Positions 7,563 through 55,383 of a stretch of DNA of 64,000 nt are shown in pieces. Position 1 is the first letter of the stretch. Each line of letters begins with the position of its first letter. Both the position numbers and the translations under genes were made by a program. The notes beneath the pieces were generated by a model, which saw only the letters and a list, made by a program, of their open reading frames with translations, searched no databases and had not been told where the DNA came from. The DNA comes from Girardia tigrina (taxonomy: Eukaryota), in contig MQRK01219517.1 in the NCBI GenBank assembly GCA_001938485.1, positions 1-64,000 of the forward strand, written 5' to 3'.

Positions 7563-7601
7563 GACAATATATTTCGTCGGATCAACAATCATCTTCAGGT
7601 C
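7563..7601 (-). ncRNA. Minimal type-I hammerhead ribozyme motif
   Basis: GAC CTGAAGA T-(weak stem II)-GAAAT AT ATT GTC. Confidence 0.55.
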
Positions 7602-7990
7602 ATTTATTAATAATTAATTCACCTGTATATAAATACAAAAATGATGATTATGTAATCGATTGCATGAAATCATGCTAATCGAAATTTCTCAATAAGATGG
7701 TTGAGACTACCGATCGAACATTGATTTTAGGGCAACGTGACCTAATTAACAATGCTTCACATGATACTCTCCCAATAACTGTCAAAATTCTGTGTAAGCA
7801 TTTATCATTATTAACATCACATTAACATTTTTTCCTATGTTCTGCAACTCTCTTTTCGACCATGTTCGTGAATTTGTTTACAGAGATTACCTTCACCAGT
7901 CTCTCCAATGTATGTGGCATCGCACCCATTACATTTCATAATCATAATCATACATTTCATATCATAACAAAGTGTTAAAGGTGTAATAAA
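7563..7990 (-). mobile_element. Penelope-like element 3' fragment (GIY-YIG endonuclease plus hammerhead)
   Basis: MKCNGCDATYIGETG...IHEH and a downstream PKINV-like C-terminus, with a hammerhead motif at the 3' end. It sits inside a repeat also present at ~18430-18890. Confidence 0.7.
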
Positions 7991-10900
7991 TTTATTACTG
8001 AACATATTTTGAATTTTGTGAGATCGTGATATAATTTTAAAATTTTTTGTTTGTTTTTTTTTAAATTTACAAATCATTTTTAACTTTTTAAATTTTAAAA
8101 CTTTTTGTATTTAGATAATTTTTTACATTTTCGAATTATAAAAATCTTACATTATTTGGCAAAAGAAAAAGTTTAACTGAGTCTTCATAAAAAATATTTC
8201 CAAAATTCTAAAAAATATTTAAAATAACAAATAAGCAATTATTTATAGATGTTTTTGAAAACCTTTAGATAATTTAACTAGAGTTTCACAGACACAAATT
8301 CGTACTAATTTAGCATATATTATTTATTAAAATAATGAAATCAAGAGAATAGAACAACATTCTAATTGAAAATAAAAGTAACTAAAGACGATAGTTTCAT
8401 TTTGTTTAGTAAATACTGCAAACAAATTATTAAAAAAAAACCACAATTTTTAATCCAGGTATAAAAATCTGAATTTATTTAGAAACATGAAACCTTTATC
8501 AACAATAAATTATAAAAATGGAATTTTTCATCTTTAAGAAAACTCTTTTTGTCCATGTTAAGTTTTTCAAACAATTAATTTCAAATAATTAATTTCAAAC
8601 AATAGAATGTGAGGTCTTTAATAATTTTGCTATTTTGTATTATAATTAAAAAAATTTTTGAATACTTAAACCTCCATTGACTAAAGCGTATTTAATCCAA
8701 TGGCTTCCGAGCTTATGCATTAGTTGGGGGTACCGAACTATTTATAACACCGAATAAATTACAACACCAAATTACAACAACGAATTAATTAAAACACTGA
8801 ATTAACAGTTAAAAACAGAATAAATGTATCTGTAGACAAATTTAACACAAAATATTACAGTGGGGCTCGTGAAAATTTTAATGAACATGTTTTTGTTTAA
8901 GTAAAATAATTCAATAATAAAATGTTGGACAAATTCAAATTGTACATTATGGAAAAATAAATGTTTTTGTTGATTTGATTGCATTTTAATTCATAAATTT
9001 CGTGATCATCTCAAATGATTTCGCATCAACAATCCGCTGGGAATATGGATTGGTTGAAATCGATCGATTTCCTCGGACCGAAAAAAACCGGACGAACTTG
9101 ACGATAACGTAGTTCGCCACTCCGTGACATAACAAACCGGTCACGGTGGTGGAATCAGACAAAGAATTATCACGCAGCATTAAATGTTGATGTTCATTGT
9201 ACAATACTAATGTGCTCACCGAAAATTCAAACATGACGATTTAATTATTAAGGAGTCTTCTTTTGAGACTTTTATTAAGAACCTTAGGAGTTCGGGTTTC
9301 TCTACCTTGTTGTAAGAAGATTATTGTTAATTCGTAAAGACTACAAGTTCAAATCTTCAATCATTGAATTCAATATTGGCAAGTTGATTCAAAGTAGTAA
9401 TTTTACTTTTATTTCTCCATAACAAGCGACCAAGATCTTATGTTCCTATTATTACTTTACTCTTTAATGAATATCAAAATAATAAATTTACTTCATTTAA
9501 TAATTTTCGGAATTTTAAAACAAATTCTCCTAATTTCAATTTAGATTCAACAATAATTTTCTATCAATGGATTTAGACACAAATTGAAATTTTTATTGAA
9601 TTTTTAATGTACATCTTTCAAATAATGGATTGATGAGAATTAATTAATTTCGGAGATTTAGTATTGAGAAATTCAAAAACTCAATTAAATATGTATTTAT
9701 TCAGAAAAAAGATTTTTTTCGGTGAAAAAAACACAATTCTCGAATTAGCGATTTGTTTAAATGTATTCATTAGAAATGTATCTTCGTGGATGTAAATACC
9801 GCTTTAATTAAATAAACAATCAGAAATTCAAATAAACAATTTTTTATTTAAATTACTTTCATTTTAAAATATTTTTAACGTCTTTGATCTGAATTTTGCG
9901 TTTGTAAGTAATATTTAGGAATGATGTGAGGATAAGGTTTTGAATGTTACGAAAAAATAAAACTTCCTTAGTGTAATACTTGAATAAATTAACGGCAACA
10001 CAAGCAGTACAAAATATATTCAATCAGGTAAGAGCTCCGAACAACTCGCTAGCAATTTTTTAAAAATAAAATAATTTTAGTATTTTAGTATTTCTAATTA
10101 TTGTAAGTATTTTCAGAAATCTCCAATAATTAAAAAAACAATTAAAAAATTGTCATTCATAAAATTTATTTAAAACAAAAAAACTGCCAAAGCTGTATAT
10201 TATTTATACAACTGAATTTTCAGGAGTTTTTAATATAACAGTATTCAGATCCATTTATAAATAAATATATTTGAATATAGTATAAATAAGTTAATTAATG
10301 AGTTATAATTATTTTCCCTTAAAAAATTAATTTTCTTATGTGTATCTTTTGTTTATATAAATGAAAAATGTAATTAAAGATTTAATAAATATTTTGAAAT
10401 ATGAAATTGTAAATGAGTAATATTACAAGAAATAAATTAAATTAAAAATATAATTTCTGAAAATATCAAGAAAAAAAACTAAATTTAAGATAAATTGATG
10501 TTAATTTATCTTAACACAAATTACTTTAATACCCTGAAGGTTTTTTTTCTAAAAGTTAAAATACAATTCAACTTATTTGAATTGTCTTCTTCATTATTTT
10601 TCAGCTATAGTACACCAATAATGAAATTCAATACTTCAGGAAGTACAGTCAAATGTTTACAGAGCTACTTACTTTCCTTTCCTCTGCAAGCACTTTTTCA
10701 AATGCTTCCAAATTCATCATTATCCATTTCAAAAGAATCCCTTTTGTGATCAAACTCTAATTTTTTTTCGCTTTTATCATCTTCAATATATTTTGATATG
10801 GATTTGAAACAACTCCAGCAGACGACTTACAAGAAAATTTATTTATACTTGATTTAACACCAAACAAAAATAATGGCAATCTCCAGATGATAGAACGCGA

Positions 10901-11302
10901 TAAATAACTAAACCAGAAATATCAACTGCGGCCATATTAGCACAGATTAACATATGCACTGAATACTCAACAATAATTTAAACCTAAAAGGTGCTGTTGT
11001 AGAAAAACTGTCACTAGTGTGTAAAATTTACCTCCGGTTAGCCTTCTAGGGTTATGTATTTTATTTTATTATTTATTTGAAAGTAACTCAAAAAGTTTCA
11101 AATTTAAATGATAATTAATTAAACGCTTTACAATTTAAATTTTATAATTTTTATATGTAAAATTTTAATAACAATTTTATTTAATTAAATTTAGAACAAT
11201 TGTAAAATTAATATTTATTTAATATATTTTAGTTTAAAATTTTATATATTTTAGCAATTTTTAAATTGCATTTAATACAATTTTAAAATAAATATTTACT
11301 TT

Positions 11303-11806
11303 TATTAATAACTTTTAAACAAGCCCCGTTTGAATGTTTATTACAATCACATTTAGAGTCATTATGACTCTCAGAAAGTCTTTCATCGTTTGTCATCATT
11401 CTAATTGGTTTGCCTATTTCTGTTTTTAATCATGATTATTCAAACAATTTTTCTAAGTTATTTTTTAAAATATTTAATTTCTAAAAAATATTAATTAAAA
11501 AATAATAATTTTTACAATTTCTCAATAAATCCTAAAATAATAAAATGTCATCAAATTATTAAAAATACATTTAATTTAAATTTTACCAAAAAAATATTAA
11601 ACTTAATTTTAATTGTTAAATTAAATAATATGAACTTATAACATGATTATTTTAATTATGTTCGAATAGTCAATCACTTTAAATTTAATAAAAAAATACC
11701 AATTTCCATCTGTGTGGGAGAATCACCATTCTAAATTCAACATACTTAAATCAACATACAACATCCATACATTTACACATTCAAACAATTTAAAATATCC
11801 CTCACA
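11303..11806 (-). mobile_element. Solo LTR (same family as 60359-61254)
   Basis: Minus-strand TGTGAGG...TTAATA, flanks ACTTT/ATTTT, long similarity to 60359-60698 + 61145-61254. Confidence 0.7.
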
Positions 11807-11820
11807 ATTTTGAAAAAAAA

Positions 11821-12281: not shown

Positions 12282-12972
12282 CATACTGAGTTTGCATTTA
12301 CAAGTTTTATATGCTCAAAAATATTACTTTTACATTTTCTATGATAATTTTCTTAAACTTGTTTGCAAAGTTGATGGATAGTTTCTCCATGTTCGTGGAC
12401 CTAGCCGAGGTTCTATCTTGATAATATATTTTTAATTTACCAAACTTTTACTTTATAAAAATGTTTTAAATGAAAATTTATTAATGACACTTTATTTAAA
12501 GTAACATGTAACATATGATTCATTGCACAATAAATATTTATAAATAATTTAACAACATGATCATAAATAATTTAACCTGTTGATAACCAAATAAGTTGGC
12601 ATAAAATATCATTTAAAATGAAGTATTTTAAAATTTGATTTCATCTTAGAGCTACAAAAAAGTAAATAAAACATGTCATATAATAATTTTATTATTTCTA
12701 TGATTAATGCAATTTAAATAAAAGATTTATATTGTACAAAAGGATTTTGTTTACATAAAAAATGATAGTTATGTGAACCTCAATGAAAAGACACTGTAAC
12801 CCATTAATTAACATTCAAAATAGGTAAAGTAACTCAGTATCAGTACTTAAAAAATTTAATTAAATAAAAATTGTCTTTATTGACCAAAATTATTTCAATT
12901 TATTATATATTATTATTATTATTTTAATAACTAGTTTTGTTTTTTTATAATAATTAATTTGTATAATTAATA

Positions 12973-13014
12973 ATTGTTGATGATGATTCTAGAACATATC
13001 GAAATATGTCCTAT
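12973..13014 (+). ncRNA. Degenerate hammerhead motif downstream of a PLE endonuclease C-terminal remnant (~12770-12830)
   Basis: ATTG TTGATGA T GAT..ATC GAAAT AT GTC; C3 is changed to U. Confidence 0.45.
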
Positions 13015-16000
13015 GGGGATATTTCCAAAATGCATTTTATTAATTTATATATAATCTCAGAATCAAGTTATTTCATTATGACATTATTATTAGGAAGTAT
13101 ATAATTAGCATTATTATTTTCTAAATCTCTCCTTTCGATTTTCTAAACTAGATAATTATTTGCAATCAATAAAGTCTTCATCTTTTATCAATAATTGTCG
13201 TTTTAAATCCTAAAGTCAAGTTCAAAATAATTTATTAATTCTATAAATAGAATGGGGTCAAATATATAAAATTATATTTAATTCTCTATTTATCAATATT
13301 ATCAGGATCCAAAGTTCGACTCAGGGTCATTGACGATTTTTGCGTCCACACAATTGTCTTATATAAATATGAGGAGTTAGTTAAATTTTTCAAATTCACC
13401 CAATAATTTATTTAATAGTTTGAATTGAAAATTGATTAAAGATTAGAAAAGATTCAATAAAATTAAACACTATAAGATTTAATGATACAAAAATTAACAA
13501 GTTTGAATAAATTAAAATTTAAATAAAAGTTATTTAATATGATAAATTAAAATAAGGATAAAATTTAGGATAATAATTTAAACGAAATTAATTAATGAAT
13601 TGACGAAACGAAAAATTGAATTAACGAAAATTTGTTTGTTACATACATAATTTTTTTGAGTTAAATATGAATTTGGATTCTGAAATTTAAAATAACCTCA
13701 TTAGCATCAATGCTACTAACAATAAGTAATTCTCTTCTAATATTGTTTTTTACAATAAACGATTTTAAAAAGCAAAAATTAGAAATGACAGGGAGCAAGA
13801 CTGAAATTTTATTAGTAATATTTCCACTAAGGCATTGATGTTCTAGATTTTTCACCAACGTTGTTCTTACAATTTTTAGGTCTTAACTTTTAAACTACCG
13901 GAACCGGCAATTAATCAGAGAGCCGGAACTACTACTACTTTTTTACAAAATTTCCAGTTATTAGTTTTTCTAACGAAAACACTTCAAAAAGTATTTGATG
14001 TTTGGAGTGTAGTTACCCCATATGTATGTGAGGCTTTAAAGGTCAAAAAATATAAAATGTATATGAAAGGAAAATATATTTTAAACTGTATTTAAAAATC
14101 GAAGATGTAGAATTAGAGAGGACTGAATGTATTCAAAATGATAAATATTTGTGAAAATTGTCATTTGGAATCGCCGTGTAATCAAATTTATTGACGACGA
14201 TAGCAAAGATGTGGCGGGTTGGTAGTATCAATTTGTTGGAACATATTCCTTTCTTCAATCGTCGACGTAGAGATCTCTTTGACAGCAAAATATAGCAAAT
14301 ATTTATTTGTAATGTCTACAATGAGCTCGTAAGAGATAATGAATAATTGATTGAATTACGATAATAATCGTCCAAATAATATTAGAAAATTTATATTTTT
14401 CGAAGAATTTATTTTATTATTTCTTATCGTTTATTAGAACCCGCCAAATGACAAAATGAAATGTGAGAATTTCTATAATTACAAATAAAGTTATCAATAA
14501 TCATGTAAATATTTATATTATTTATATATTTTCTGACAAATATCTTTACAAATAAACAAGATTATCATTGACAGGAAATAATTTGTTTCTTTTAAAAATT
14601 TAAATATAAATAAAATTTTTAATATAAATAAAATTATCTTCGATATTCCATTATAATAATAAAAAGATAAGTAGCGACCCTATATGTCCCTCTTAGGTCA
14701 GTCTAAAAACGATTGATAATAATGTCTCATTGGAAATTACTACATGTCTCCAAATCGTGGACCCGATTCGACAAACCATAAAAATGTGGTCTCGGCCAAT
14801 TGAAGATTTGACGTACAACGAAGAAGAGGATGTCACCAACGCGGAGCCAACTTTATGATAATTGGAACAATCTTTTCAACAAGAAAAGAATTTCTGCGGA
14901 GTATGTAACATACATGTTTACATCGCCATATGCTTCAGAGAAATAAATTATTAAAAATTATTTTCAAAAGAAACAATTAGTTTATTTTCAACTCAAAAGA
15001 ATAAATTTCTTTTGAAAATTTAGTGAAATAAGAAAAAAATGAAATTTATATTATATGTTTTACTTGATCGTAATCGCAGTTTACCTCTTGCAATCTTGGA
15101 TTTCCCACGCCAATAGAGTTGTAGCTTTGCTGTTCTTTCCCTTCTACAATTGAAAAAAATATGTTTAAAAAATAAATATTTAAATATTTTGTACTTTTAA
15201 ATGTTTTCCAAAGCATTAATGTGATTTAACCTCTTCAATTCCAGTATCCCTTAAGTGGATATTGTTCTTAAACCAAACATACGAGCTTTTTGCACTAGTG
15301 CAACCTTTACAAACACAAAATAAAAAACTTTTGTAACATTTTCATTGCTCTAAAATATTCAAAATTATTTATAGTAAATACACATATTTTATATATTTCT
15401 GAATATTATTTTTTCAGTAGCAATACAATTTTTACATAAATAAATTTACCAATTGATTTCTACGAGATCGTTAAGAATACTAAATAGTAAAATAAAGTTT
15501 ATTTAACACATGGTATATTTTAAGTTCCTGCAAAATTTGGTGTCTGATTTAAAATAAATAATAATAAATAAAATAAAACCCAGTTTCGTGAAAAACTATT
15601 TTTATTGATGTCTAATGTACTCACAACTATTTTCCATAACTGTCCCTACCGTTCTACATGTCTTAGAATTCCCTCCTGGTAGAAACTAGGTGGTTTATCT
15701 TCAAAAAAAATTATAGGGTTGTTTTTCCCTTCTTCCGTAGAAAAAATTCTTTTGCTATTCAAATTATTTGAAGAAAACTAAAAAAATGAAAAGCTGAAGG
15801 GCCAAGGTTAAGGGAATGTGGCGGTTGCTGGGGCTTTCCTCTTTCAGCTTCCTTAGTTTTGCAGTGTCGGTTGAGTGACAATGGGTCTCGCATTGTCGTG
15901 GGGAAGATGATGCCTGTTCGATTAACCTGACTTGGATATTTTGCATGGATTTCCACATTTATTTTGGTGAGTTCCTCGTAAAAATTCTCCGCAGTGGAAA

Positions 16001-20450: not shown

Positions 20451-20520
20451 GTGATCTGTCAATGACGATAAAACCGTAGAAATATATTATCATAAACTTT
20501 ATTTTTAAATGGCGTTTTTG
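20451..20520 (+). ncRNA. Degenerate hammerhead/PLE 3' terminus
   Basis: GTGAT CTGTCAA TGACG..CCGTA GAAAT AT ATT ATCAT followed by the AAATGGCGTTT terminus shared with 45280. Confidence 0.5.
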
Positions 20521-22338: not shown

Positions 22339-22575
22339 ATGATATTATATTTCGAAGGTTTTACCGTCATCATCAGATCATTGATTTTTAACTTTTCTAT
22401 TGCTTATATATAAATATGAAATTGATGATTATGTAACCAATTACGTAAAACTAATCGAAAATCTAAATAAAATAATTGAGAGCGCCGTTTGAACATTAAT
22501 TTTAGAATCACAATCTTGATCATGATCAGTGATCTGAAAATATCGATAAAAACGTCGAAATATATTATCACAAAA
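22339..22575. mobile_element. Palindromic PLE-derived mini-element with two outward-facing hammerheads
   Basis: Minus HHR 22339-22381 (CTGATGA core), plus HHR 22529-22571 (CTGAAAA, stem I GTGAT/ATCAC). The spacer resembles the PLE 3' region at 7640-7730. Confidence 0.65.
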
Positions 22576-23588
22576 GCTATATTACGAAGTAGCATATCTT
22601 TTGCTTTTTTTTAATTGTCATTATTTTTTAAATTAATTTGCAATAATTTTTATTGTTGAAATATAAAAACATTTCGTTTAATTTTCGTTAAAAGTATTTT
22701 ATAAATATACATTTTGTTTTTATCCTTTCAACACTGTTGGGACATATTGTTGCAGAGCATACTTTTTTTGCTGTTTGCGGTCTGCAAATCGCCATATTAT
22801 TTTTTCTATACATTTTTTTCAGTCTAGATGTTACTTGCAAACAGTAGATACGAGTCACACTAATTAGTCAAAATAAATAGGAAAAAATATTTTGAGTTAT
22901 AATATTACACGGATTACTGAAATAAAAAAATCCTGTTAAAAGAAAATAGAGCAGATGCTCACCTAGGTGGATGATGATTGCACTTTGACTCTACAAAGTT
23001 TTGTTCGTAATATACGAGAAGAATTTCATCTTGAGGTATACAAATCTACCGTTGACAGATGTTTGCATCTGTGAGGATAATTAGATGTATATAGGTATTT
23101 GTAATAACATATTTCTATTTATAATTATAATATATTAATGGATCCAAAGTATTCTTAATAAAAATCTCCTGTGTTTTAATATTCAGAAAATTTGTAACAA
23201 ATTCAAATTATTGTGTAATTTTATATTAACAATAAATTTTGGAAAATTCTTATAGCGTCAATTCAAATATACTTTAAAAAGAATATTCCAATAAGTAGAA
23301 ATTTTCTTTATGTAGATATTCTTATTTCCAATATTCCTATAAGTAGAAATACTAAAAAGGGTGATAAGCCTCAGGGAAACTTATGAACGACTTTAAGAAG
23401 CCTCGAAGAAAGTTACGAGGATGAAACATTCATTTCTTGATGAGTTTAAGTTTCAGGTTGTGACGTGACCTAGTCGTGATTGAAGTAGATTAGGAGAATC
23501 TGCTTATGTTTCAGTATCTGCTGCAAGGAGTCAGAACAATTCGGTCGTAGCAGCCATGAATAAATAAGGTAAATTTTACCATAAAATT

Positions 23589-27447: not shown

Positions 27448-28002
27448 TATATATTTTAATTAGTCAATTTTATTCAAGTATATTAAAATAATTGTTCATA
27501 AGGTACTGAAAAAAACAAATTCATATAATCAAAAACGCCATTGGGGTCAGAAAATTTATCAATTAAAATGTTCCGTTTTTTGCGATATATTTTGGTAGAT
27601 TTACCTCCGTCTTTAAGTAAAACTTTTCAATAATTGTACTACCTTATTTAAATTGTGATTACTTAATCAATTTATGTAATAACTAATTAAATACGTTCAA
27701 CAAAGTGGAAAGGAGGCTTGTTTGAAAATTAGTTGATTGATTAAGTGATTAATCAATAATGCCTCACCAAAGACCTCTCCCAATAATTTTTAAAATTACT
27801 GTACAGTAAAATAACTATTATTCTTTATACAATGCGTCAAAATTATTCAAGAAATAGATCATTCATCTTATGATTCCTTTGAAATTGTGGAAACTAAATA
27901 TTAACCGTTAGATTTTCTGAACCACATACATAAAGATGATGACATTAAGCAATCAGAAAATTCACACTCTTCAGAAAGAAATGTAAAATTCAAGATTATC
28001 AG

Positions 28003-30018: not shown

Positions 30019-30061
30019 GTTAAACATGTTTCGATCAGCTAATTTCATCATTTCCGGCAAC
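30019..30061 (-). ncRNA. Degenerate hammerhead motif
   Basis: GTTG CCGGAAA T GAT..ATC GAAAC AT GTT TAAC; core heavily mutated. Confidence 0.35.
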
Positions 30062-31242: not shown

Positions 31243-32731
31243 CTTAGTTTGTTCCAAAAGTCCTCAGGTGGCCTTTAGAAACATATTTTACCAAATTTAA
31301 CCAAATTTGGACTGAATATTATTCAGACTGTCATAAATACTGTGTTAAAATTTCAAAGCATAAAATTAAAAAAAGTAAAATTTTGTTTTATTAAAGTATT
31401 GAAATTTTAAAAGTGCAGCGAATTCAAATGAAGCGGTTTTTAACAATGGAACCAAATAAATATTGCCAACGTTTTTTTGTTCTAACTCAAAGTAAAAGAG
31501 GATTCTCTGCTTCAGAAATTCTTCAGCAACTTCATCAGGTATGGGAAGACGCAAATCACCCAGCACTGAAAACTATTCAACAATGGTTGACTGATTTTAA
31601 AAAAGAAAAGCGGACGTCCTTCGATGATTCATCAAGAAGTAGCAGGCCGTCATTAATAGACAATGAAAAGATTAAAGCAGTCAAAGAAGTGATTGATGAA
31701 GCTCCAAATGCGTCTTTGCGTTATATTGAAAATGAACTTTCTTTAGGAAAAAATACAGTCCACAAAATTTTGCGTGAAAAACTTTATTACAAAAAAGTTT
31801 GTCCTGTATGGGTCCCTCACGAACTTTCTGCTGCTAATAAACAACAACGCATTAACACGGCAAAGCATATACACCAAGTAATTTCATATATGGGTGATGA
31901 AGAATATTCCAACATAGCGATCGAGGATGAGACATGGGTCTTTTTCCAAGGTAGAGGAAAGAAAGAAGATCACAAATTTTGGATTCTTTCTAATGCTGTT
32001 CCACTAAAAGTGATAAAGCCATTGCTAATGACTGATAAAAAATCTCTTGTTTTCGTAACCTTTACCTGCAACAAACGTTTTAATGTAAAAGCACTGCCAT
32101 ATGGTACCAAGATTGATTCCGAGGCGTATGTGAACTTTGTTCATGACACCNGTGAAAAATGGCGGAAACTTAGATATAACAGCATCAAGCTAAAGGAACT
32201 TAAGTGGTGGCATGATAATGCAAGACCTCATTCTAGCAAAGAAACAACTCTTTTTTTGAAAGAAGAAAAATTGAAACAATTTATCAATCGCCCTATAGTC
32301 CAGATTTTAATCTGTGTGATAAATTCTTGTTTTCAAAAATGAAGAAAAGTTTTAAAAATCATGTTTTCAAATCACATGAAGAAATTGAAGAAGCTTGTAA
32401 ATTCTTTTTGAATTCTTTATCAACAGAAACATTAAAAAATCAACTAGATAAACTTTTTAACTATTGTCAGTGGGTTATTGACAACAATGGTGAATATGTT
32501 GTTGCTTAAGAAATATTTAAAATATTTTTTAAATAAATTTTTAAATTCACTGCATCTAATTTTTTTGTTGGTTAATAATATTATTTTTTTGGTAAGTTTC
32601 AAATTTTTTGCTTTGAAATTTTAACACAGTATTTATGACAGTCTGAATAATATTCAGTCCAAATTTGGTTAAATTTGGTAAAATATTAGTGTGTTTTTAA
32701 AGGCCACCTGAGGACTTTTGGGACAGTCTAA
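31243..32731 (+). mobile_element. Near-intact mariner (DD34D) with ~125-bp TIRs
   Basis: Inverted repeats ~31244-31368 / ~32600-32731 are nearly identical and enclose a transposase. Confidence 0.92.
31446..32509 (+). pseudogene. Mariner transposase (~354 aa) with one frameshift
   Basis: WVPHEL, EDETW, HDNARPH, YSPDFNLCD. Adding one T to the T7 run at 32251-32257 restores the ORF and D34D spacing; one N at 32151. Confidence 0.88.
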
Positions 32732-35917: not shown

Positions 35918-36764
35918 CAGGCGCGTACTCAGGGGGACTATAATGTAATATATTTCTGCGTATATGAGTTTTGAATTTTTAAGTTAAAAAAAATTTAGGA
36001 TTAATTATTATTAAAATAATAAAATTTATAATACCATCGAAATTCAACTTTTGTTAAAAATAAAATTACATAAATTTATACAATAATTATAAAAGCATAA
36101 ATCTTCTGGGGTTCTTCGCTAAAGTGTTAAAACCTCGTCAGTCTCTTAGGAAGCACATAATTCCTGGTGAATGTTCATTATAGCTAAGCCATTCAATCCC
36201 TGCTCTGATGTCGTGTTTCGTAAGCAAGTCTTGATTCTGCGTAATATAGAAAAAGATCGTTTAGCTGTGGCTGTTGTTACTGGTAAAGTTGCAAATAACC
36301 TCAACATATTGTGAATTGTAGGATATAAATGAAAGTTGCAAATATTCAAGCAATGAATAATGTCCATTGAAAGATATTTTTTATTTATACAATTACGCTT
36401 CTACATCGTCACTTCATCAAAAATACATCTTTAGTGCATTTAATATCATTCGGCTATTGTTTATGACTGGCTGTTATCTGCAGCATGTTTAATGTTTTGA
36501 GGAAGAACAATTTCTATGATCTGAAAAACATATATTCAGTTAAAAAACTTAGAGGTAATTAAGATCATAATTGCAATTTTCGGGATATGATTTTCTTAAA
36601 TTTGCAAAATATTAATTAATTTGGAGATTTAACAAAACTTAAATATTCTAACTTATTCTTATTAATATGTAGTAAAAAAACATAGACGTAATTAAGATCG
36701 AAATATTAATTTTTTTCGGAGGGTGTTTTATCCAATCTTATTACCCCCCCTGCGTACGCACCTG
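35918..36764 (-). mobile_element. Internally deleted hAT transposon
   Basis: TIRs CAGGCGCGTACTCAGGGGG / CCCCCTGCGTACGCACCTG, degenerate 8-bp TSD, hAT dimerisation motif TLPVTTATAKRSFSILRRIKTCLRNT. Confidence 0.85.
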
Positions 36765-37963
36765 TAACAGGAAGACATATTCCGGTTGTGTTATCAATGA
36801 GTTATATGGTCAGGTCAAAAAATACTTTTTGATTTTTAAATAAAATAATAAATTAAATAATAAACTATTTTTCTAGTGATTATAAATAAAATAAAAAATA
36901 AAATAAAAATAAAATTAAGTCGAATAGACTCAACCCTTGACTTAAAGGTCACAATGAACATCTTTTAAAAGGCTCGGTTTGGGAGGATTTTCGGTCTTTT
37001 AATTTCCAAATAAAAATTTAAACTGAAATTATTTTATTTTCTGTTTATTAAATTGATTAAAAATTATATATAAATTATATTTCCCAACCGAATAAAAAAG
37101 TCAATCTCGATAAATATATGAAAGTGCTGTAGTCGATAATTGAGAGGATAATTAAAGTTAATAATTTCATGAATAATCAATTTTTTTGGGGAAAATCCAA
37201 TGATAAAATAATTGCCGGGCATCTCCCTAGGACCTCAATTGCAAATCCAGTTTCCTGTATTGGTCTCTTCCAGCAATTTCCTCCCAATGATTTATTCGTT
37301 TGGTTTTGTTTAATAATTTTCATTTTAATTAAATTTGTTATTAGTTGAACAAACAAAATTCAGTGACATCATTAAATTATATTAAACTTTATTATCGAAG
37401 CATTTTAATTGTGAAATACATTTTTTTTGAAAAAAATAATAATTATTAAAATGTAATAATTGTTGTAAATAGGACAAAACGTTTTATTTAATTTAGGTAT
37501 TTTTCTTTAAAATATTATATAAGTTTTTAATTTAATATGTTTACATTTAAAACTTATCGAACAAATAATATTTCCATGCTTTAACCAAATATTTTTTTCG
37601 TAAAATTAAACGGAGCACACAGAATTTTAAAGTCATTTATGTTAATACTTTCGTTTGAATTTCAAACTTTTCGGTATTATGCAATATTACTTCCTCCCAC
37701 ATTCCGACCATGTTCTTGTATTGTAGTCTGAGACATATCTCTAATGTTTGTGACATTACATGTCTTCAGTGTGCTCAGTTTAATAAGTGTTGGGAGAGAG
37801 TGGCTTGTGAAGAACTACATATCAAATCTTTAGATTCTAAGATTAATGTGAAAACGGTTCTCACGACAATCTTATTGAGTGTGTTTAGATTACACAATTA
37901 ATCATTGATTTTATAATCACTGCTGGCCTATAGAAGTAGATTTAAAATTAATAATTTCTTTAT

Positions 37964-38002
37964 GACCTGATCATAATGGTTATACTGTCGAAATTAATTG
38001 TA
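37964..38002 (+). ncRNA. Degenerate hammerhead downstream of PLE endonuclease remnant (~37790-37860)
   Basis: GAC CTGATCA ...CTGTC GAAAT; G8 changed to C. Upstream RVACEELHIKSLDSKINV. Confidence 0.4.
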
Positions 38003-39671: not shown

Positions 39672-39899
39672 TATATGATATATTGTTTATTGAAAGAAAA
39701 AATTATTTATTTGATAAATGAAGATAATTTTAGAAATTTTCAATATGTTTATAATTATATTTTTGTTCAATTTAAATCTACATTTATTGAGAAAAATATT
39801 ATTTTTATATTTCTTTTAGTTGGCTAGAATTTTTAAAACAAATCTAGTCAAAATATGAAATAAATTCAAAAATATTTATAAATATGACTTTCTATTCAG

Positions 39900-40856
39900 A
39901 TAATCGCTGTCGTATCTGTGATATTTATCCTCATTTCCATAACCTGCCTCATGATAAGTACATTGCCACAATTCCAGATGAATGATACTCTAACCAACAC
40001 CAACTACACGAACAATACACAGACCAAAGAGAACCCAGTCAATGAAGCTGAAAATTTCCATCCTCTCGAAATGATTGAAGTTATTTGTATTATATGGTTT
40101 ACATTTGAATATGTCTGTAGATTATTTTCGTGTCCAAATAAAAAAAATTTTCTCAAATCCCCCATGAACATGATAGATATTTTAGCAATTTTACCTTACT
40201 ATATTTCCGTTATTTTTACAAAAGTGTTACACAATCAAAATACCGAGTCTTTGATTTCTGTTAGAAAAGTCGTACAAGTTTTTCGTATTCTTCGTGTTTT
40301 AAGAATATTGAAATTGGCTCGACATTCAACTGGTCTTCAGGCACTTGGATATACTCTTCAGAAAAGTTATAAAGAATTGGGAATGTTGGTTATGTTTATA
40401 GCATTGGGCGTTCTTTTATTCTCCAGTTTGATTTATTTTGCGGAAAAAGATGAGGCTGAAAAAAAATTTACAAGTATTCCGGCTACCTTTTGGTGGGCCA
40501 TAATAACAATGACTACAGTTGGTTATGGAGATATGGTACCAAATTCAGTGTTGGGTAAATTTATCGGTTCCTTCTGTTGCATATGCGGTGTTCTTGTGAT
40601 AGCTTTGCCGATTCCTATAATTGTGAATAATTTTGCCGACTATTATAAAGATCAGTTACGTCGAGAAAAGACTCTGAAACGAAGAGAAGACATGGCAAAA
40701 GCTAAAGAACAAGGAAGTATTGTTTCAGCCAAATCAGATGATGAAGAATCCTCGGATTTCACGTTTGGTTCAGATGAAGAAAACACCAGTCTTATGAAAA
40801 GAAACACTTTTCACAGTCAATCTCTCAAACCACGCAGCTTCAGTGACTTTTTTAAA
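39900..40856 (+). CDS. Shab: Shab/Kv2 channel, S1-S6 and proximal C-terminus exon
   Basis: S4 [20 protein letters not shown], filter TMTTVGYGD, Kv2-type PIP hinge [16 protein letters not shown]...GSIVS; donor GTAAAT at 40857. Confidence 0.95.
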
Positions 40857-40902
40857 GTAAATATTATATTAATATTCTAATAAAACCGTATTTTTTCATT
40901 AG

Positions 40903-43184: not shown

Positions 43185-43620
43185 ATTGAACATGTTTTGG
43201 AACTCAATTTCTATCGTCAGCAATTATAATTTAATGTTTATTATAATAAACTTTAAATTAATGGCATCATTTTCTAAGAAGTCTCTTGAAGATAAAATCA
43301 ATACATACCCTAGGGCAAAACCTGTAGTGTAAAAGAAATATGTAGATGACATCTTTCTGTTTTCAGGAATCAATCCCTCATTGAACCATTCCTAATATTC
43401 TTGAATGACCTTTATCTTAATATTAAGTTCACAAAAGAATCAAAAGTAAATAACAAACTTTCTTTTCTTAACATTTTTGTCGCTTGGATAAATGGAAAAT
43501 ACCAAACTGAATTATACAAAAAGACATCAGATAAATACCTCTACACAACACTACAGAGCTTTTTCGAGGAAAAAATTTAGATGGGATAATAGAGAGATTG
43601 TAAATTGTATTTTGATTTTA
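43185..43620 (+). mobile_element. PLE RT remnant with upstream inverted hammerhead
   Basis: KYVDDIFLF, IKFTKESKVNNKLSFL on +. Minus HHR at 43185-43224: ATTG CTGACGA...AAAAC AT GTT CAAT (G12 changed to A). Confidence 0.6.
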
Positions 43621-45047
43621 AAATATCAGACTCTGCTTTAAATATTCTTTAAGGACACTGGAGAGACAACATAAAAAGTTAGATAGATCACGATAATAAT
43701 AATAATCAGAGAACTATTCATGCATGCAAATACAACCAATTATTTCATTCACAATCATGCAATATTATCATCACATCACTCTTATCGCACATCATTCACT
43801 CATCAAACATTCGCACTTCAAACCATCAATCTCATCACTCCATAATTATCAATCATACCTAAACCTATTCTCAGATCAACATCAATTTAATCCAATTGTC
43901 CTACGAATCGAAACATCTTCTCAACAGTACTTCTTTGGTTTACACTTAATTTTCAGCACAAGCTCCAGCAGGTAGCTTCTGTTTCGTAATTGATCTCTTC
44001 CATATTCCCTTATTATGATTTTATTTTAAATAGTGTTACAATATATAACAAAATCTTCTTTACAATGTTCTTTAACTTCGAAGATGATATTTTAATTGTG
44101 AATTTTTTAAAACTTCATTTTTATAAAAATTTGTCCCAATTTAATTAAAATATTATCATTACTTTAAAATTTTTTAAAAAAATTATTTCATTTTAATTAG
44201 TAATATACTATCTGTGAACTATAATTTTTACAAAAATTATTTCCATTTAATTAGTAGAATTGTTACTATAAAATATATTTTTAAAAAAATCCTATTTAAT
44301 TTAATTAGTAAAAATATTATCCATAACTTAAATTTTTTATTTTAAAGAATTATTTCATTTTAATTAATCAACATTATTTTTACTTTATCCAAAATATAAA
44401 TATGATTTTTAAAAAATATCAAAAATTTAAAGTTCACGAAAAGGAACCCCAACATGTATTACATGCAACCGTAATATGATGTGGAAACGTTGAATTGAGG
44501 GATGATGCTCTGGATGCGAGAGGAATCCCTCCATATATTGAGAACCAGATTGGTAAAATTCTCCATAAAACATTAAGAGAACGAAGTACGGCCATTATCA
44601 AGGCCATTAATGATAGTTGTTAAATTACGATCCAGAAGATGAACCAATGCTCTCCAAGAGATTCGAGAACTTTGGAAAAATTGAAGAACACCGTCAAAAA
44701 TATCCATAAACCATTTTTTATAATGTTTAAATTGTAATTTTATATTAATATTGAAATTTCTTAATTACTTTTTTAAAAATTTAAAATAAATTGGCATTTA
44801 AGAAATAATCTATTCATTTCAATTTTATAAATAATATTTTACATTTCTTTCAATTAAAGATAATTTTTTTCGAAGATTCTTAATATTATATTTTTAATGT
44901 TTTCTTCAGATAATTAAAAGATTATAATTATTTCTGACAGTTGACAATTGCTACTTAAATTTCCAAAACGAAAAAAATAGAAATATTGAAATAATTCATT
45001 TAAAAATAATTACAAATAAACTTGAAAAAAGATGGCAATTTTTTATT

Positions 45048-45300
45048 AAAAACAAATAAACGCCATTTAAAAATATATTTTAGGATAATATATTTCGACG
45101 GTTTAACCGTCATCATCAGANNNNNNNNNNNNNNNNNNNNNNNNNNNNNNNNNNNNNNNNNNNNNNNNNNNNNNNNNNNNNNNNNNTTTTCTTATATAAA
45201 AGCAATAAAAAAGAACATAATCAGTGATCTGATGATGACGGTTAAACCGTCGAAATATATTATCCTAAAATATATTTTTAAATGGCGTTTATTTGTTTTT
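45048..45300. mobile_element. Palindromic double-hammerhead mini-element (gap in centre)
   Basis: Perfect ~73-bp inverted arms, each with CTGATGA T GACGG-TTAAA-CCGTC GAAAT AT ATT and the AAATGGCGTTT terminus. Confidence 0.7.
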
Positions 45301-47325
45301 TATTAAAAATAATTATATATTATTTTCATTGTTGAATATGTTTTCCAAGTAATTCATAATATAAGGTTATAAGATTTTATAAGATCGTGTAATATAAAAT
45401 AAATGATTTAAGTGAAGTTTCAAACGAACTTGTGTGAACAAGAAGGAAACAACTTGATGGAAAAAAATAAGAGCCCTTCGTAAAAGATATGAGGCTTCAA
45501 TAATCATTGGTACACTAGAAATGTTTCAGAGGGTACCCAGTTCACTTTACTAATTCCATTTCTTTCAAAGACTTTAACTTGTTGGGATAGTATTTTATTA
45601 TAAAGAGCCTTATAATTATGTTAGTTTTTCAAATTAATTGTTTACTTAATCCTAAAAAAATATTTTTAATTTCATTATGAAAGGTTTGGGAAATTATGTT
45701 ACACTGATCGAAGTATATTATTTTTGGTTTGACTTCATAAGTTAATTAATCACACAAAATGTTATTTATTATTTATTCCACTATATCCCTCTTAGACTAT
45801 AGACAATAAAAATGCTTTTTACTAAACTTTACAAAAAAATATTTATAAAAGTAAATATTTTTTAAAATTTGTGACAAATATTTAAAACTTTTATGCATGT
45901 GGTATGTTGATTTTAGTATACTGAACTTAGAATGGTGATTCTAAAACCCAGTCGACAGTTGGTCGATACTTAATTTGTGTACATTGATTATTCGAACATA
46001 ATTAAGATTTTTAAAAGTTAATGTAATTAATAATGTGATAAAATTATAATTTATGAAATAATAATTAGACTCAATTTTAAGTATAAATAAATTTTTAAAA
46101 AATGATTAAATTTGGTATATTCAATATTTTAATTATTAAAAATCAAAAATCATAAAATTTGTATACTTTTAAGAAATAGTTTTAATGAAGCTATATAAAA
46201 TATATTTTAAAGTTTAACATTTAGGTATATAATTGTTTGACTTAAATGTGGTGAATAAGTTTCACCAAAAAAGAAAAGTATCTCTCGACGAAAATCAACC
46301 GAAGTCGATCAAAAAAGACCAGTGTTCACCGGTGAAGAAGAAACAAAAATCACTGATGGTAAACAAGACGATAATCAAGACAAAAAACGAATAAAATTAA
46401 GAAAATCAATAATAAAGGAATCGGAGAGATAAATACCGCGATGGGTTTCCCTTGACGGTTCTCGTCGTAAGGATAACAAGCGTTGGGGTTCGAATAACAA
46501 CAATGATAATGATAGTGATAATAAAAGATGGGGATCTTATAACAATGAATACGATGAGAATAATAAAAAATGAGACTCTAATGGGACCCTCAGAGGAATG
46601 ATAGTCAGATTGAGATTCGGAGCTTCCCTCCAGGTGAGACTATGCATTTAAGGCTCCCGCGTCCCGCAGTCCACCCCCATCACCAACACGCCGCAGCCAC
46701 CACGCTGCGCCTGCTCTCGCACCACCAATAATATTTAAGAATATTTCTTTAAATTGAAGTTCGTTTAATATTTTTATGAAGTTTAAACGAAAATTAAATC
46801 TCAAAGGTTAATAAAAAATTTAAAATTATTTACTCGCTTCGATGATTTTAAAATTATGAAAGGAAGAAACTTTTTTTCCAATAATCATAATAAGAAAAAT
46901 TAGAAAATATAAATATAATTTCACCAACTAGAATGTAGACCTGTTTACGATCTCCCGATATCAGTCACGGAATCGATTGAAAAAAAAATATTATATGATA
47001 TTATATTTTTGTTGTTTTTATATATTAAATATATTGTTTTGTTAAATTATTAATGCCATAACTTTTCTCTTTTCTCTTTAAAAAGTGAAAAGCACATTAT
47101 TTATTCAGCTAAATAGAAAGAAAAGCAAACATTTGACCCAATTATTTAACAAATAAAAATTATTTTAACTAATAAAAAATCGAATATTTATTGGAACAAT
47201 ACTGAATTTGTTTGACCAAATTATTTGGAATTTTGCTGAAATGAAAATTATTATAATTTTATAAAATATTATTGTAATTATATATGTGTGCGTTTTCTGC
47301 TTTTTAATATATTTTATTAACAAAC

Positions 47326-47372: not shown

Positions 47373-47566
47373 AGAAAATAAATTTAAATAAGTTTTAAGG
47401 CATTTTGTCTTGTCTAAGATATATATGAATATATTTGTGAATACAAAGCGAAATTCCAAAATAAATCAGTTTTGCAAGTTAAAAAAAAGTATATATATAT
47501 ATATATATATATATATNNNNNNNNNNNNNNNNNNNNNNNNNNNNNNNNNNNNNNNNNNNNNNNNNN

Positions 47567-47600
<34 letters not shown>
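47330..47600. repeat. (TA)n microsatellites (others at ~48093, 50647, 57817, 60328, 62233, 62846)
   Basis: Direct observation; several border gaps or TE insertions. Confidence 0.9.
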
Positions 47601-47603
<3 letters not shown>

Positions 47604-47742
47604 CATCATAAACCATGCTTAAATGTGCAAGGTGATTCATCTAATCATATTAAAGTTTTTTAAATATCATTAAAATACTTTTTTTTAAAAAGAAAAAAAA
47701 GCATGTTTTTGAGACGTATGATGTAATAGTTTTTCAACTATA

Positions 47743-47949
47743 TACTCATAGTTCGATATACGGCCTAGATACGTTCCTAGATACGGCCTAGAAAATATGT
47801 ATATTAATGTTTTTTTCACACTTTTTTCAAAATTTTTTTTGGCCGTATAACGAAAAATTCTAGGCCGTAAATCAAAAAGTGCCATAATTAAAGTAGGCCG
47901 TTATAGCGAAAAGCCGTATAAAGAGCGGCCGTATAGCGAGGTATGAGTG
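47743..47949. mobile_element. pogo/Tigger-like MITE
   Basis: TIRs TACTCATAGTTCGATATACGGCC / GGCCGTATAGCGAGGTATGAGTG, TA flanks, internal TACGGCC repeats. Confidence 0.7.
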
Positions 47950-47977
47950 TATAAATAGTAATTAATCTCTTTATTTC

Positions 47978-48018
47978 ATTGCACTGAAGATGCCGAAATG
48001 ATGAAACGCGTATGTCTT
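47978..48018 (+). ncRNA. Minimal hammerhead motif
   Basis: GCA CTGAAGA T GCC..GAT GAAAC GC GTA TGT; core intact, stem II decayed. Confidence 0.5.
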
Positions 48019-48088
48019 GTCAATAAATTTAATATTCAAAAATGGACTTTCTTTTCATTATTATTAAAAATGCCATTATCAGTTCTAG

Positions 48089-48126
<38 letters not shown>

Positions 48127-49811: not shown

Positions 49812-49853
49812 ATTGCTGATGATGATGTATGTAAACATGGAAACATGTCCAAT
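49812..49853 (+). ncRNA. Minimal type-I hammerhead ribozyme downstream of PLE endonuclease remnant (~49568-49633)
   Basis: ATTG CTGATGA TG ATGT-loop-ACAT G GAAAC AT GTC CAAT. Upstream KRQFCESLLIRHYKQSINIQ. Confidence 0.7.
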
Positions 49854-50663: not shown

Positions 50664-50694
<31 letters not shown>

Positions 50695-52829: not shown

Positions 52830-53609
52830 TGTTCTCCATTATCCATTTAAAATAAAATGACTGATACCGATTCTATGATCTATTAATTAAAACACAATAT
52901 CAATAATCTCGACTATTTAATGGGAGAATAGTGATGTTATAATTGTGAGGAATATTTGAATGTTTGATGTTTTGTGTTTGAATGTGTATGTTGATTTGGA
53001 AATGTGTCTCTCCTACCCAGATGGATGATTAATATTTTAATTATTATTATCTGAAAATATGTAATGTTTAAATTTATTTTTAATTTCAAATAATTTTACA
53101 ATTTTAAATAAGTTAATTAGTTTTTACAAATTTTAATAAATAAATCAAATTAATATTTTTTAAATAATTAATTATCATTTTAATTATTATCCAATAAGTT
53201 TTGAGCGAATATTTTATTTAAATATTTATTTCCCCATTTTCTAAAAACTTAATGAGAATTAAACCATTAATCAATTTTGCTTTGAAAGCAAATGTACGAA
53301 AGTTTTTACAAAGATTGTCTTGAGGACAATCAAAATTGTTGTTTAAATAAAAATATATAAAATCAAATTGGTGTTCTTAATAATAATGAGTCACATTTTC
53401 AAAGCCTTTTCATTGGTTTACACTCTCTAACACTCTCTAACTGTCAACATACATTCAATATCAAACAACTAACCCATATTATTGTATCATCACAACTAAC
53501 TTTACACAATCAATTTCATCAAGAATCACACAATAATTAAGACGTAATTAATCTTAGTTATTTCAGTTAGTTCCATGCAATATTTATTACGTAACTATTC
53601 CTACTCACA
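52830..53609 (-). mobile_element. Solo LTR (TG...CA, TSD ATATA) hosting a second solo LTR
   Basis: Similar to the uninterrupted copy 59074-59469; ATATA at 52825 and 53610. Confidence 0.8.
52944..53382 (+). mobile_element. Solo LTR, TSD ATAAT
   Basis: TGTGAGG...GTTCTTAATA, high identity to 60699-61139; the empty site is visible at ~59171-59190. Confidence 0.9.
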
Positions 53610-54311
53610 ATATATATATATTTTATTATATTATATATTATATTATATTATATTTATTAAAATAGTCATAAAATGGGACATATCGATTAATAATCCTATA
53701 ATTTAATTGGTTGGTGTCTCGTCCTAACCCCGTGGATTGTGTGAATGTGAATCAGTTTATGCACCTAAATAATGTGCTAAGTCACACGTTTGCCAATAAA
53801 TAAACCAGCATAAAATTGATATATTAATTAATTAAGTCATTTATAGATTGTAATAAAAACAAATTCAAACGAACAAATTGATTAAAGAGAAAGGGACAAA
53901 GTTTTGGGAAAATAAAACAAATTTTGTTTAAAGAGATATTGAACATGTAAACATTTGTAAAATGAACTGACTGGAATTAATCAATTGCGTTGGGAAAGGA
54001 TTTGAGAAGTGGGGAAGAGTAGAGACAAACAGAAAATGAAAAATATTCATTTGTCTTAAACATAAAATAATAAAAATAGCAAACATTTAAACAGAAAATA
54101 ATTAATAATAATTATTGAATATCTTTTAATTATTTTTGTAGAATTTCTGCTTTATTAAACATTTTATTCTTTTTTGAAAGTTACCCATTTTTCAATTTAA
54201 GAAATATAAGGAACTAATAATAAGTATTAAAAACAGTAATATAATTTTCGATTGTTCCATCTGATTTCAAGGTGGCCACGAAGGCCGGATGGTGGTATCA
54301 AATCCTGGCAC

Positions 54312-54762
54312 TATTTAGCAACATTGCAATTAGCGTGAAAACATTGATTAACAACACAAACAGACTCATCCTTATAACAATTTTCAGGAGCACCATCTGC
54401 GGTAAGCATCGTTCTTAATGGCTATATTTTTATAACAATATTCAAATCTTTGATTAATCAATTAGATCAAAATAATAATAACTTACTTTCTCAAAATTTT
54501 ATTTGATAAAATTTATTTTATTGGATTTAAAATAAATATTAGTTTTTAATTTATAATAAATTCAATAAGTTAAATTATTTACTCAAAATTATTATTAAAA
54601 TTTATAATTATAAAACTTTTAACTAATAAGTATTTCAACATTAATTACATTAAACTAATCTCATTAGATTCAAATAATCAATCAATAAACATATCAATCC
54701 CATCTGCGTAGGAGAGCACCAATCTAAACAGCATACAAGGAACATTCAGAATTTGTCATCAT
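54312..54762 (-). mobile_element. Solo LTR (family of 38465-38913)
   Basis: Extended similarity to 38465-38913; ends approximate, no TSD seen. Confidence 0.6.
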
Positions 54763-55340
54763 AGCGCTCATGGCAGTTATATTCGTGCTTGATCCATTTG
54801 GATTTGAATCGATTACTCAATGAAAAATTTTTATAAATCGTTAATGATAATAAAATTCAAAGTTCAGTTAAAGATGCAAAAAACACTAAGTAGTTTTACC
54901 AAAATCATTTCAATAAACATCAAATTCTCAGTAAAAAAAATTATTGATTAAAAAGTAGTTTTTTTATCGCTCCATATTTCGTCATCTCGCGACTACTTTC
55001 CAGAACAAAGAAGTCTTTTTTTCGGGATTTTAAACAATTTCGAATTGTTTAAACTCAAAATATTAATTTCTATGAAATGATTTTAAATTTCTTTTTTTTT
55101 ATTTTTTTAATATTCATTATTTATCATATTATTATACCTATATATAAGCAAGGAGCAAAAATAAATCATTGAAATGTCATTAATGCAAACAATGGTAAAT
55201 CATAGATGGGTCATTCGAAAGAAAATAGATAAATTAAATTAAATATTTAACTTAAACTGTTTTAGGGAATGGAAGGAGATTTAATGGCAATTTATTTGTA
55301 AAGAAAATGAAGAACAAACGCCATTTTAAAAGTTTTTTAT

Positions 55341-55383
55341 TTCTCAAAACATGTTTCGCCATTACGGCATCATCAGTTGTGAA
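55341..55383 (-). ncRNA. Intact minimal type-I hammerhead ribozyme at PLE 3' end
   Basis: TTCACAA CTGATGA T GCC-GTAAT-GGC GAAAC AT GTT TTGAGAA. Upstream (55480-55555) reads ERIVTEALLIKHLKPCKNVQ. Confidence 0.8.

Follow-up and report, generated by a model that had tools for sequence, protein, structure and literature searches.

The 64,000-nucleotide stretch of Girardia tigrina DNA analysed here (the window) carries thirteen hammerhead motifs, which can be assigned with high confidence to the type I ribozymes of the pLTRs of Penelope-like elements (PLEs), present as 5'-truncated, mostly decayed copies of elements that bear an endonuclease; it is likely that these elements are of the Penelope/Poseidon type and that the copies are inert. 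The motifs are real and of a kind already known, and nothing in the window is new in kind. In the parent families of these copies, the start codon of the element likely lies inside the ribozyme itself.

Hammerhead motifs and associated features in the window

A previous sequence-only reading had listed thirteen hammerhead sites. Each of them does have a recognisable motif on the strand assigned to it (C3 at 7598-, 12977+, 20456+, 22376-, 22534+, 30057- and 37967+ for sites 1-7, and at 43220-, 45119-, 45229+, 47984+, 49816+ and 55376- for sites 8-13), but the catalytic boxes, CUGANGA and GAAA with an extra base before G10.1-C11.1, are intact in only four. The thirteen motifs correspond to 11 insertions of about eight families, the pairs 22376/22534 and 45119/45229 each being one inverted insertion. 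Boxes, stem II and palindrome are all intact in three motifs (45119, 45229 and 55376); the motif at 7598 has intact boxes and two of its five stem II pairs broken, and in the other nine there are alterations of the conserved boxes or of pairs 10.1-11.1 or 15.1-16.1. With three intact motifs out of thirteen, the idea of about a dozen working ribozymes in the window was not borne out. The features are the following (min-HHR, minimal hammerhead ribozyme):

7566..7598, minus strand: min-HHR, family G, boxes intact, three of five stem II pairs, AUU; 89% to L156 over 180 nt
7681..8110, minus strand: decayed GIY-YIG endonuclease end (CxxC...YIG; 45.9 bits) of the element with the 7598 motif
12789-12836: weak endonuclease end for the 12977 motif (11.9 bits, E 0.008)
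12977..13010, plus strand: decayed min-HHR, family C-like (72% over 79 nt, E 7e-5)
20456..20488, plus strand: decayed min-HHR, family A, with a broken core; endonuclease end not detected
22344..22376, minus strand: min-HHR, family A, 15.1-16.1 pair broken
22462-22515, minus strand: endonuclease end for the 22376 motif
22534..22566, plus strand: decayed inverted partner of 22376, same insertion
27576..27731, minus strand: heavily decayed family H pLTR relic that includes an endonuclease end (73% over 162 nt)
30023..30057, minus strand: most decayed motif, its first box with three changes; relative of the L193 motif (68% over 117 nt, E 1e-6)
37767-37886: endonuclease end for the 37967 motif (47.2 bits)
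37967..37999, plus strand: decayed min-HHR, G8 and G10.1 changed
43189..43220, minus strand: decayed min-HHR, family D, G12 changed; 77% to L137; copy without endonuclease end
45000..45012: target-site duplication, left copy, 13 bp
45013..45302: single family A insertion with two inverted pLTR ends; 66 N in the middle
45087..45119, minus strand: intact min-HHR core, family A, AUU; 5' strand of stem I under N
45229..45261, plus strand: intact min-HHR, family A, AUU
45303..45315: target-site duplication, right copy, 13 bp
47595..47660, plus strand: endonuclease end of a family E copy, beginning at a (TA)n run (28.3 bits)
47743..47949: 207-bp MITE (terminal inverted repeats, TA duplication) interrupting the 3' UTR of this family E copy; empty site in L207
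47984..48012, plus strand: min-HHR, family E, with damage to stem II (C11.1 changed), GUA; 94% to L111
49565-49666: endonuclease end for the 49816 motif (37.7 bits)
49816..49849, plus strand: min-HHR, family C, 10.1-11.1 pair broken, GUC; 94% to L139
55348..55376, minus strand: intact min-HHR, family B, GUU, then tail; 98% to L104
55459-55572: endonuclease end for the 55376 motif (60.8 bits)

The relic at 27576-27731(-) was absent from the original list, and no target duplication was found for the 22376/22534 insertion beyond an 8-nt T run.

The notion that such motifs are chance matches in AT-rich DNA draws on the permissive end of the window scan, in which a hammerhead descriptor with a palindromic helix III was compared with 100 shuffles per mismatch level. 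Matches in the window numbered 4, 6, 8 and 12 at 0, 1, 2 and 3 core mismatches, against shuffle means of 0, 0, 0.19 and 2.0 (maxima 0, 0, 1 and 5). At three mismatches there are thus 2.0 matches per shuffle on average, and two of the 12 (at 13564 and 39330, both absent from the original list) fit this chance rate. At up to two mismatches, in contrast, the eight sites far exceed the shuffle mean, so the motif frequency stands above that of shuffled sequence, and at up to one mismatch six were observed with none in 100 shuffles. The motifs at 12977 and 30057 are weak as motifs, yet their alignments with genome families extend over 79 and 117 nt; alignments to families refute a chance origin for 11 of the 13 sites, and as a general explanation it has a vanishingly small probability. 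A scan of the window against Rfam, with E up to 10, gave no match to a hammerhead family.

Relationship with Penelope-like elements

The association with GIY-YIG endonuclease remnants, which had been noticed for several motifs, holds for seven of the 11 insertions. The C-terminal remnant is clear at 7598, 22376, 37967, 47984, 49816 and 55376 and weak at 12977, and it lies about 80-150 nt before C3, except at 47984, where the spacing is 324 nt because the 207-bp MITE sits between the remnant and the motif. A Pfam scan of the window's own RT and endonuclease fragments gave no match. In the rest of the genome, an ORF with matches to RVT_1 and GIY-YIG lies upstream of the family B motif; the single ORF consists of an RT followed by a C-terminal GIY-YIG domain, with DKG and CxxC...H...H read in the translations. 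Locus L191 shows the order inverted pLTR, direct 5' pLTR, a 557-codon open frame running into the RT, and then endonuclease and 3' motif; the motif is therefore present in both pLTRs, before and after the ORF. Junctions at the 5' side were also seen for families B, E and K, and none for A, C, D and G. By eye, translations of families A, B and F have the CCHH motif and lack the CX2-5CxxC zinc-finger linker between RT and endonuclease; judged by these motifs, the clade is likely Penelope/Poseidon. The identification of minimal type I hammerheads of PLE pLTRs at the 3' ends of elements of several families is in this way upheld.

For four insertions (20456, 30057, 43220 and 45119/45229) the window contains no endonuclease remnant, and these could be taken for non-autonomous retrozyme- or SINE-like elements, or for ends attached to LINEs. 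Support for the former comes from bioRxiv 10.64898/2026.07.22.740005, where non-LTR retrozymes are derived from pLTRs and have, as here, a type I hammerhead from PLEs. The retrozymes described there are tandem non-coding units, while the motifs studied here are dispersed and follow endonuclease ends, and no tandem arrays of the motif occur in the window. Family A (20456, 45119 and 45229) has its motif 3' of an endonuclease end in copies elsewhere in the genome, and so does family D in L137; the retrozyme, SINE or LINE reading is improbable, and the insertions of these two families are best seen as truncated PLE copies, as the one at 30057 may be too.

The best preserved insertion (45013-45302) has the 13-bp duplication and a tail of about 35 nt on its minus-strand pLTR end alone, a layout already published for Penelope (bioRxiv 2021.04.23.441226 and PMC3846280). 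The latter describes Pen2a_Av and relatives of Adineta vaga, which also have a direct and an inverted pLTR, a target duplication, an optional 31-bp tail on one end and a pLTR with the first 12-22 codons; unlike them, the copies in the window are stubs of 100-500 bp with a duplication of 13 bp. The two motifs of the inverted pair are predicted to fold on each other (-110 kcal/mol). The exact 33-mer at 45229..45261 occurs 1,881 times in the genome assembly, and part of this stretch was found in 18 of the 19 runs listed, as assembled contigs, which is no measure of expression or habitat; in the four aligned to it, starts and ends do not pile up, a signal that contigs could not give in any case.

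The perfect core was counted 34,260 times genome-wide (haplotype duplicates included) against 27 for the control, a 1,270-fold excess. The proposed density of one motif per 5 kb is correct for the window if decayed relics are counted, but not for the genome, where perfect cores occur once per about 42 kb. The stems were evaluated in 74 copies, sampled with a search pattern that required just two base pairs. Helix III is palindromic in 67 of them, with five different palindromes; stem I pairs 1-3 are kept in 67, 69 and 55 of 71 copies, with four pair types at pairs 1-2, and stem II pairs 2-4 in 69, 70 and 70 of 74, with several pair types each. Stems I and II and the helix III palindrome thus covary across families, although the copies are related and the counts are not independent events. 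It is known that the NUH rule excludes G17, and G17 was found in none of the 74 copies; genome-wide it was found 436 times versus 21,879 for U17, the commonest class. The palindrome and the NUH triplet are strongly conserved across families, which points to selection on the fold in the parent elements.

The AUU cleavage triplet, considered a special variant in the sequence-only reading, is present in 26 of the 74 copies. Its novelty is ruled out by an alignment published in 2014 (Cervera and De la Pena; PMC4209133), whose Fig. S3 contains AUU in D. rhopaloa, D. elegans, D. ficusphila, C. remanei and Latimeria; a literature search aimed at AUU triplets returned nothing relevant. The min-HHRs of that work resemble those of Girardia in both boxes, the extra base between 9 and 10.1, G10.1-C11.1, the short stem I, the palindromic helix III, the many families per genome, the AUU and GUU triplets of Fig. 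S3, and the predominance of solitary 3' copies with some opposite-strand pairs 100-700 bp apart. There are two differences from what is described there: the six-base palindrome is the rule here and a variant in that work, and the count given above, which includes haplotype duplicates and comes from a different descriptor, exceeds the 4,000 and 9,000 that were called remarkable there.

Start codons, element ends and the possible role of the ribozyme

In four families (B, E, F and K) the ORF opens at an AUG within the ribozyme, upstream of the predicted cut. In L191 the 557-codon frame begins at an AUG in stem II, and in L175 the family B AUG is within the motif. Among 19 N-terminal matches with a motif upstream, 11 (families F, E and K) have an in-frame AUG inside the motif, and in the other eight it is missing through indels or point changes in those copies. 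In families B, E and F the AUG belongs to the 3' strand of stem II and precedes the predicted cut by 15 nt; a further in-frame AUG of family E comes 57 nt past the cut. The distance from AUG to cut is 26 nt in family K and, as inferred from peptide likeness, 27 nt in family A. A start codon inside the ribozyme is therefore likely for these elements. An AUG at stem II had been shown for one lizard element, PAc, a Poseidon of Anolis carolinensis (Frangieh et al. 2024; PMC11167929), whose ORF also starts from stem II, 26 nt before the cut; the 15-nt position of families B, E and F is a second one, unlike that of PAc.

The ends of the elements are located past the cut. Of 27 family B ends, scored from 14 nt past the cut onwards, 14 are at 34-49 nt and 11 at 74-78 nt, and the 29 family A ends are mostly at 33-51 or 62-76 nt. 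Copies ending at the cut site itself were also considered: among the 29 ends of family A, a single one is within 3 nt of it, one is at 17 nt and the other 27 are at 33 nt or more. PAc likewise has an optional tail between two RT start sites, one of them in a stem-loop, with ends at about 85 nt and beyond, whereas those described here, deduced from sequence alone, are at about 40-78 nt. A helix search per copy found a tail hairpin in 79 of 170 (related) copies, against a shuffle mean of 26.8 and a maximum of 35, and it is this search, not the others, that is suggestive of a hairpin spanning the tail: no consensus structure emerged when 10 sequences were aligned blind, and single-sequence z-scores ranged from -1.4 to +1.3. 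As regards a start codon in the ribozyme or a tail hairpin in print, searches of the literature outside subscription journals returned no papers beyond those cited here, and Figs S1 and S2 of PMC11167929 and the bioRxiv supplements may show the stem-loop in more detail.

Taken together, these observations allow a cycle to be proposed. In an active parent, the pLTR comprises the 3' UTR, the ribozyme and the start of the single RT-endonuclease ORF (its first 25-30 codons), as four families show, and the start codon would stand 15-27 nt ahead of the predicted cut. Folding of the ribozyme is predicted to require either a dimer, joined through the six-base palindrome, or the help of the element's protein, so that the majority of transcripts would escape cutting and be available both for translation and as template; cutting at the 5' pLTR would separate the start codon from the ORF. 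Reverse transcription would begin at two sites, about 40-45 and 73-78 nt past the cut, producing ends with and without the tail, and its early termination or fold-back would leave the short and inverted stubs of the window. Protein-assisted cleavage and two RT starts, together with the AUG at stem II, are known from the anole element (PMC11167929). Minimum-energy folding of 45229, 55376 and 49816, single or paired, did not yield the active fold; in the minimum-energy dimers the strands of stem II pair between molecules in place of helix III.

The ribozyme might instead be a working step of replication, in which the 5' and 3' motifs pair via the palindrome and excise a unit-length RNA that circularises, ligation rejoins the AUG to the ORF, and RT from the tail hairpin crosses the junction and makes the pLTR. 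Such a circle was proposed as a model in PMC4209133; the conservation of palindrome and NUH across families is in its favour, and the position of the AUG before the cut and of the ends 40-78 nt beyond it is equally compatible with a circular and an uncut template. Against it, mutants with a dead ribozyme were still able to insert in vitro and no RNA-seq reads terminated at the cut (PMC11167929), and the motif is absent from Naiad and from most Chlamys elements, which spread all the same (bioRxiv 2021.04.23.441226), so that a working circle can be entertained as a possibility and is on the doubtful side. Retention of some copies by the host as self-cleaving regulatory elements, for instance within the long Kv2/Shab channel gene intron, is very improbable: seven of the listed motifs do fall in the interval from the BTB exon (5946-6698) to the pore exon (39888-40880), but all four on the sense strand of the intron (12977, 20456, 22534 and 37967) have broken cores, and none of the three intact motifs is in that intron, two of them forming an inverted pair.

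The function of the PLE hammerhead is still called unclear (PMC11167929; bioRxiv 2021.04.23.441226). Tentatively, it may act as a switch from translation to template: the AUG of every family would precede the cut despite its moved positions, cleavage would decapitate the ORF and circularisation restore it, and a covarying hairpin 10-65 nt past the cut, with the short element end in its loop, would be the conserved RT start that makes the tail. The AUG positions involved, with the same reservation, could be A9-U-G10.1 of the core, the 3' strand of stem II and possibly the helix III palindrome.

For the study of these elements, the motif is a cheap marker with which PLE families can be counted and sorted in a fragmented assembly. 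Should the tail hairpin be real, what is so far a single in vitro result would be broadened to a conserved signal. If the AUG stays within the ribozyme across many families and positions, this would point to a link between cleavage and translation that simple reporters could address, and if the hammerhead is indeed such a switch, the roughly 34,000 perfect cores of ten or more families would amount to a natural mutational scan of both signals.

Hammerhead motifs of the window and of the genome

A hammerhead-like motif is present at all 13 sites named in the sequence-only reading, each on the strand that had been claimed, as a site-by-site check established. These motifs lie in the pLTRs of Penelope-like elements. 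A descriptor combining both conserved boxes with a palindromic helix III matches the window 4, 6, 8 and 12 times at 0, 1, 2 and 3 mismatches, versus 0, 0, 0.19 and 2.0 matches in 100 local shuffles, so the excess over shuffled sequence holds. An Rfam scan of the window returned no hammerhead match. Only the motifs at 45119, 45229 and 55376 (named by the position of C3) read as intact; conserved positions are altered in nine of the 13, and in 7598 the boxes are intact but stem II is damaged.

The 13 motifs correspond to 11 insertions, two pairs being each a single inverted insertion. One inverted stub, at 45013-45302, bears a 13-bp duplication on both flanks and the tail (an optional extension of about 35 nt) at one side only. 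Alignment to motif copies elsewhere in the genome separates about eight Penelope families, which bears out the claim of several subfamilies; the assignment is clear for 11 sites and weak for 12977 and 30057. The endonuclease remnants said to precede several motifs were recovered in 7 of the 11 insertions, using a profile built from 37 C-terminal endonuclease peptides; at 47984, a 207-bp MITE sits between remnant and motif. An additional pLTR relic, beyond the sites originally listed, occupies 27576-27731. Short pLTR-like fragments without the full motif also occur at 23116-23171(-), 53611-53675(+), 55387-55447(+), 44010-44047 and 44170-44202.

Other features of the window (about 26% G+C)
5946-6698, +: Kv2/Shab potassium channel exon, BTB_2 domain (Pfam match)
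31283-32686: Tc1/mariner-like element, transposase ORF (31395-32509, frameshifted) between 90-nt inverted repeats
36146-36400, -: fragment of a hAT transposase dimerisation domain
39888-40880, +: Kv2/Shab potassium channel exon, Ion_trans domain (Pfam match)
47743-47949: MITE of 207 bp inside a Penelope 3' UTR, with inverted ends of ~23 bp and a duplicated TA; locus L207 carries the empty site
58544-59019, -: family B Penelope RT piece running into N
59852-59983, +: Penelope endonuclease piece running into N

The two Kv2/Shab exons are likely separated by an intron of 33 kb. The Rfam K_chan_RES match at 40518-40631 is the pore-coding part of this channel, whose highest-identity named relatives include two flatworms and one annelid, so that a flatworm is a possible host. 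The RT and endonuclease pieces are probably one inverted insertion. A dispersed repeat family, with several copies 80-85% alike, occupies 52830-53609 and 59067-61144, and also occurs at 3153, 11889 and 28065.

In the assembly as a whole (1.43 Gb, 255,254 contigs), the core of 45229 has 1,881 exact copies versus 0 for the control, and a general perfect-core pattern has 34,260 matches versus 27, a figure that overstates the loci, some neighbouring contigs looking like haplotype duplicates, and that leaves decayed copies uncounted. The genome thus gives about 42 kb per perfect core, rather than the proposed one motif per 5 kb. Stem covariation was assessed in 74 distinct copies, taken from the flanks of 70 among the first 100 matches listed, with a search pattern that demands only pairs 10.1-11.1 and 15.1-16.1. 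A palindromic helix III is seen in 67 of these 74 copies, and five distinct palindromes occur among them; stem I pairs 1, 2 and 3 are kept in 67/71, 69/71 and 55/71 copies, and stem II pairs 2, 3 and 4 in 69/74, 70/74 and 70/74. Several pair types occur at each, so that both stems covary across copies.

Hammerhead cleavage triplets follow the NUH rule. Genome-wide, 21,879 matches have U at position 17 and 436 have G; among the sampled copies that position is U in 36, C in 21, A in 17 and G in none. The consensus line in Fig. S3 of PMC4209133 likewise reads NUH. The AUU triplet, earlier singled out as a variant, occurs in 26 of the 74 copies and in five species of that same figure, and is therefore ordinary.

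Parent elements and the start codon

With the RT piece of the window as query, family B copies were retrieved in which the ORF, matching RVT_1 and GIY-YIG, stops about 85 nt before a 55376-type motif. DKG and CCHH were found in the parent-element ORFs, and no extra zinc-finger linker was seen in their translations; judged by translated sequence, this combination fits the Penelope/Poseidon type by the criteria in bioRxiv 2021.04.23.441226.

A near-complete copy elsewhere in the genome (L191) comprises an inverted pLTR, a direct 5' pLTR, the ORF and, on the 3' side, a motif that stops at (TA)n. Its ORF opens at a stem II AUG and stays open for 557 codons through the RT core, followed by a frameshift and then the endonuclease; L175 has the same 5' pLTR/ORF junction for family B. 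The N-terminal peptide has 53 matches, 19 of them with a motif just upstream; in 11 of these 19 an in-frame AUG lies inside the motif, and the other eight carry indels or point changes. This AUG precedes the predicted cleavage site by 15 nt in families E and F and by 26 (and 5) nt in family K. In family A a similar peptide begins at a core AUG placed 27 nt upstream of the predicted cut, but no 5' junction was seen among the copies examined. When 140 copies are translated so that AAA of the second box forms a codon, a median of 21.5 codons stays open; the two remaining frames give 4 and 6. The ORF start overlaps the motif in four families. An AUG at stem II is shared with the anole element, where the cut falls 26 nt later (PMC11167929), and Adineta pLTRs are described in PMC3846280 as containing the first 12-22 codons.

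Element ends and the tail

Element ends fall into two classes. Of 32 family B copies, 27 have their end marked by a (TA)n run: 14 end 34-49 nt and 11 end 74-78 nt past the cut, and the remaining two at 63 and 85 nt. In family A (29 copies) the ends lie at 3, 17, 33-51 (8) and 62-76 nt (19). Since ends lie past the cut in both families, the template normally ran beyond it, either uncut or religated.

Several observations are suggestive of a hairpin in the tail. Of 170 copies, 79 have a helix whose arms lie around 21-29 and 50-65 nt past the cut, versus 26.8 in shuffles; its arms co-vary between families and once within one family, and the short element ends fall in its loop. Evidence that speaks against the hairpin is that these arms overlap conserved codons, blind alignment folding of the tail region gave no consensus structure, and single-sequence z-scores of the hairpin were not significant.

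Insertion at (TA)n also differs by family (27/32 in B versus 1/32 in A). Among loci L060-L259 this preference splits families B, C, E and F from A, G, H, I and J, and different Penelope families are often adjacent or nested at the same (TA)n runs (L062, L078, L101, L174, L177). bioRxiv 2021.04.23.441226 proposes that a linker zinc finger directs (TA)n targeting; such a finger was seen in neither family A nor family B, despite their differing preference.

Proposed mechanism and significance

According to PMC4209133, dimers are weakly active and a monomer inactive, and protein-assisted cleavage, dispensable for insertion, has been described (PMC11167929). By analogy with this literature, cleavage may occur as a dimer or with the help of a protein, and reverse transcription may be primed internally at two sites. 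A cut at the 5' pLTR would sever the start codon from the ORF; circularisation by ligation would rejoin them. The copies of the window are most likely inert, because damage affects ten of them, two of the intact three are predicted to pair together, and all four sense motifs in the channel intron are broken. The motifs are real and of a known type; the start-codon rule and the putative tail hairpin are of interest at the level of the genome rather than of the window.
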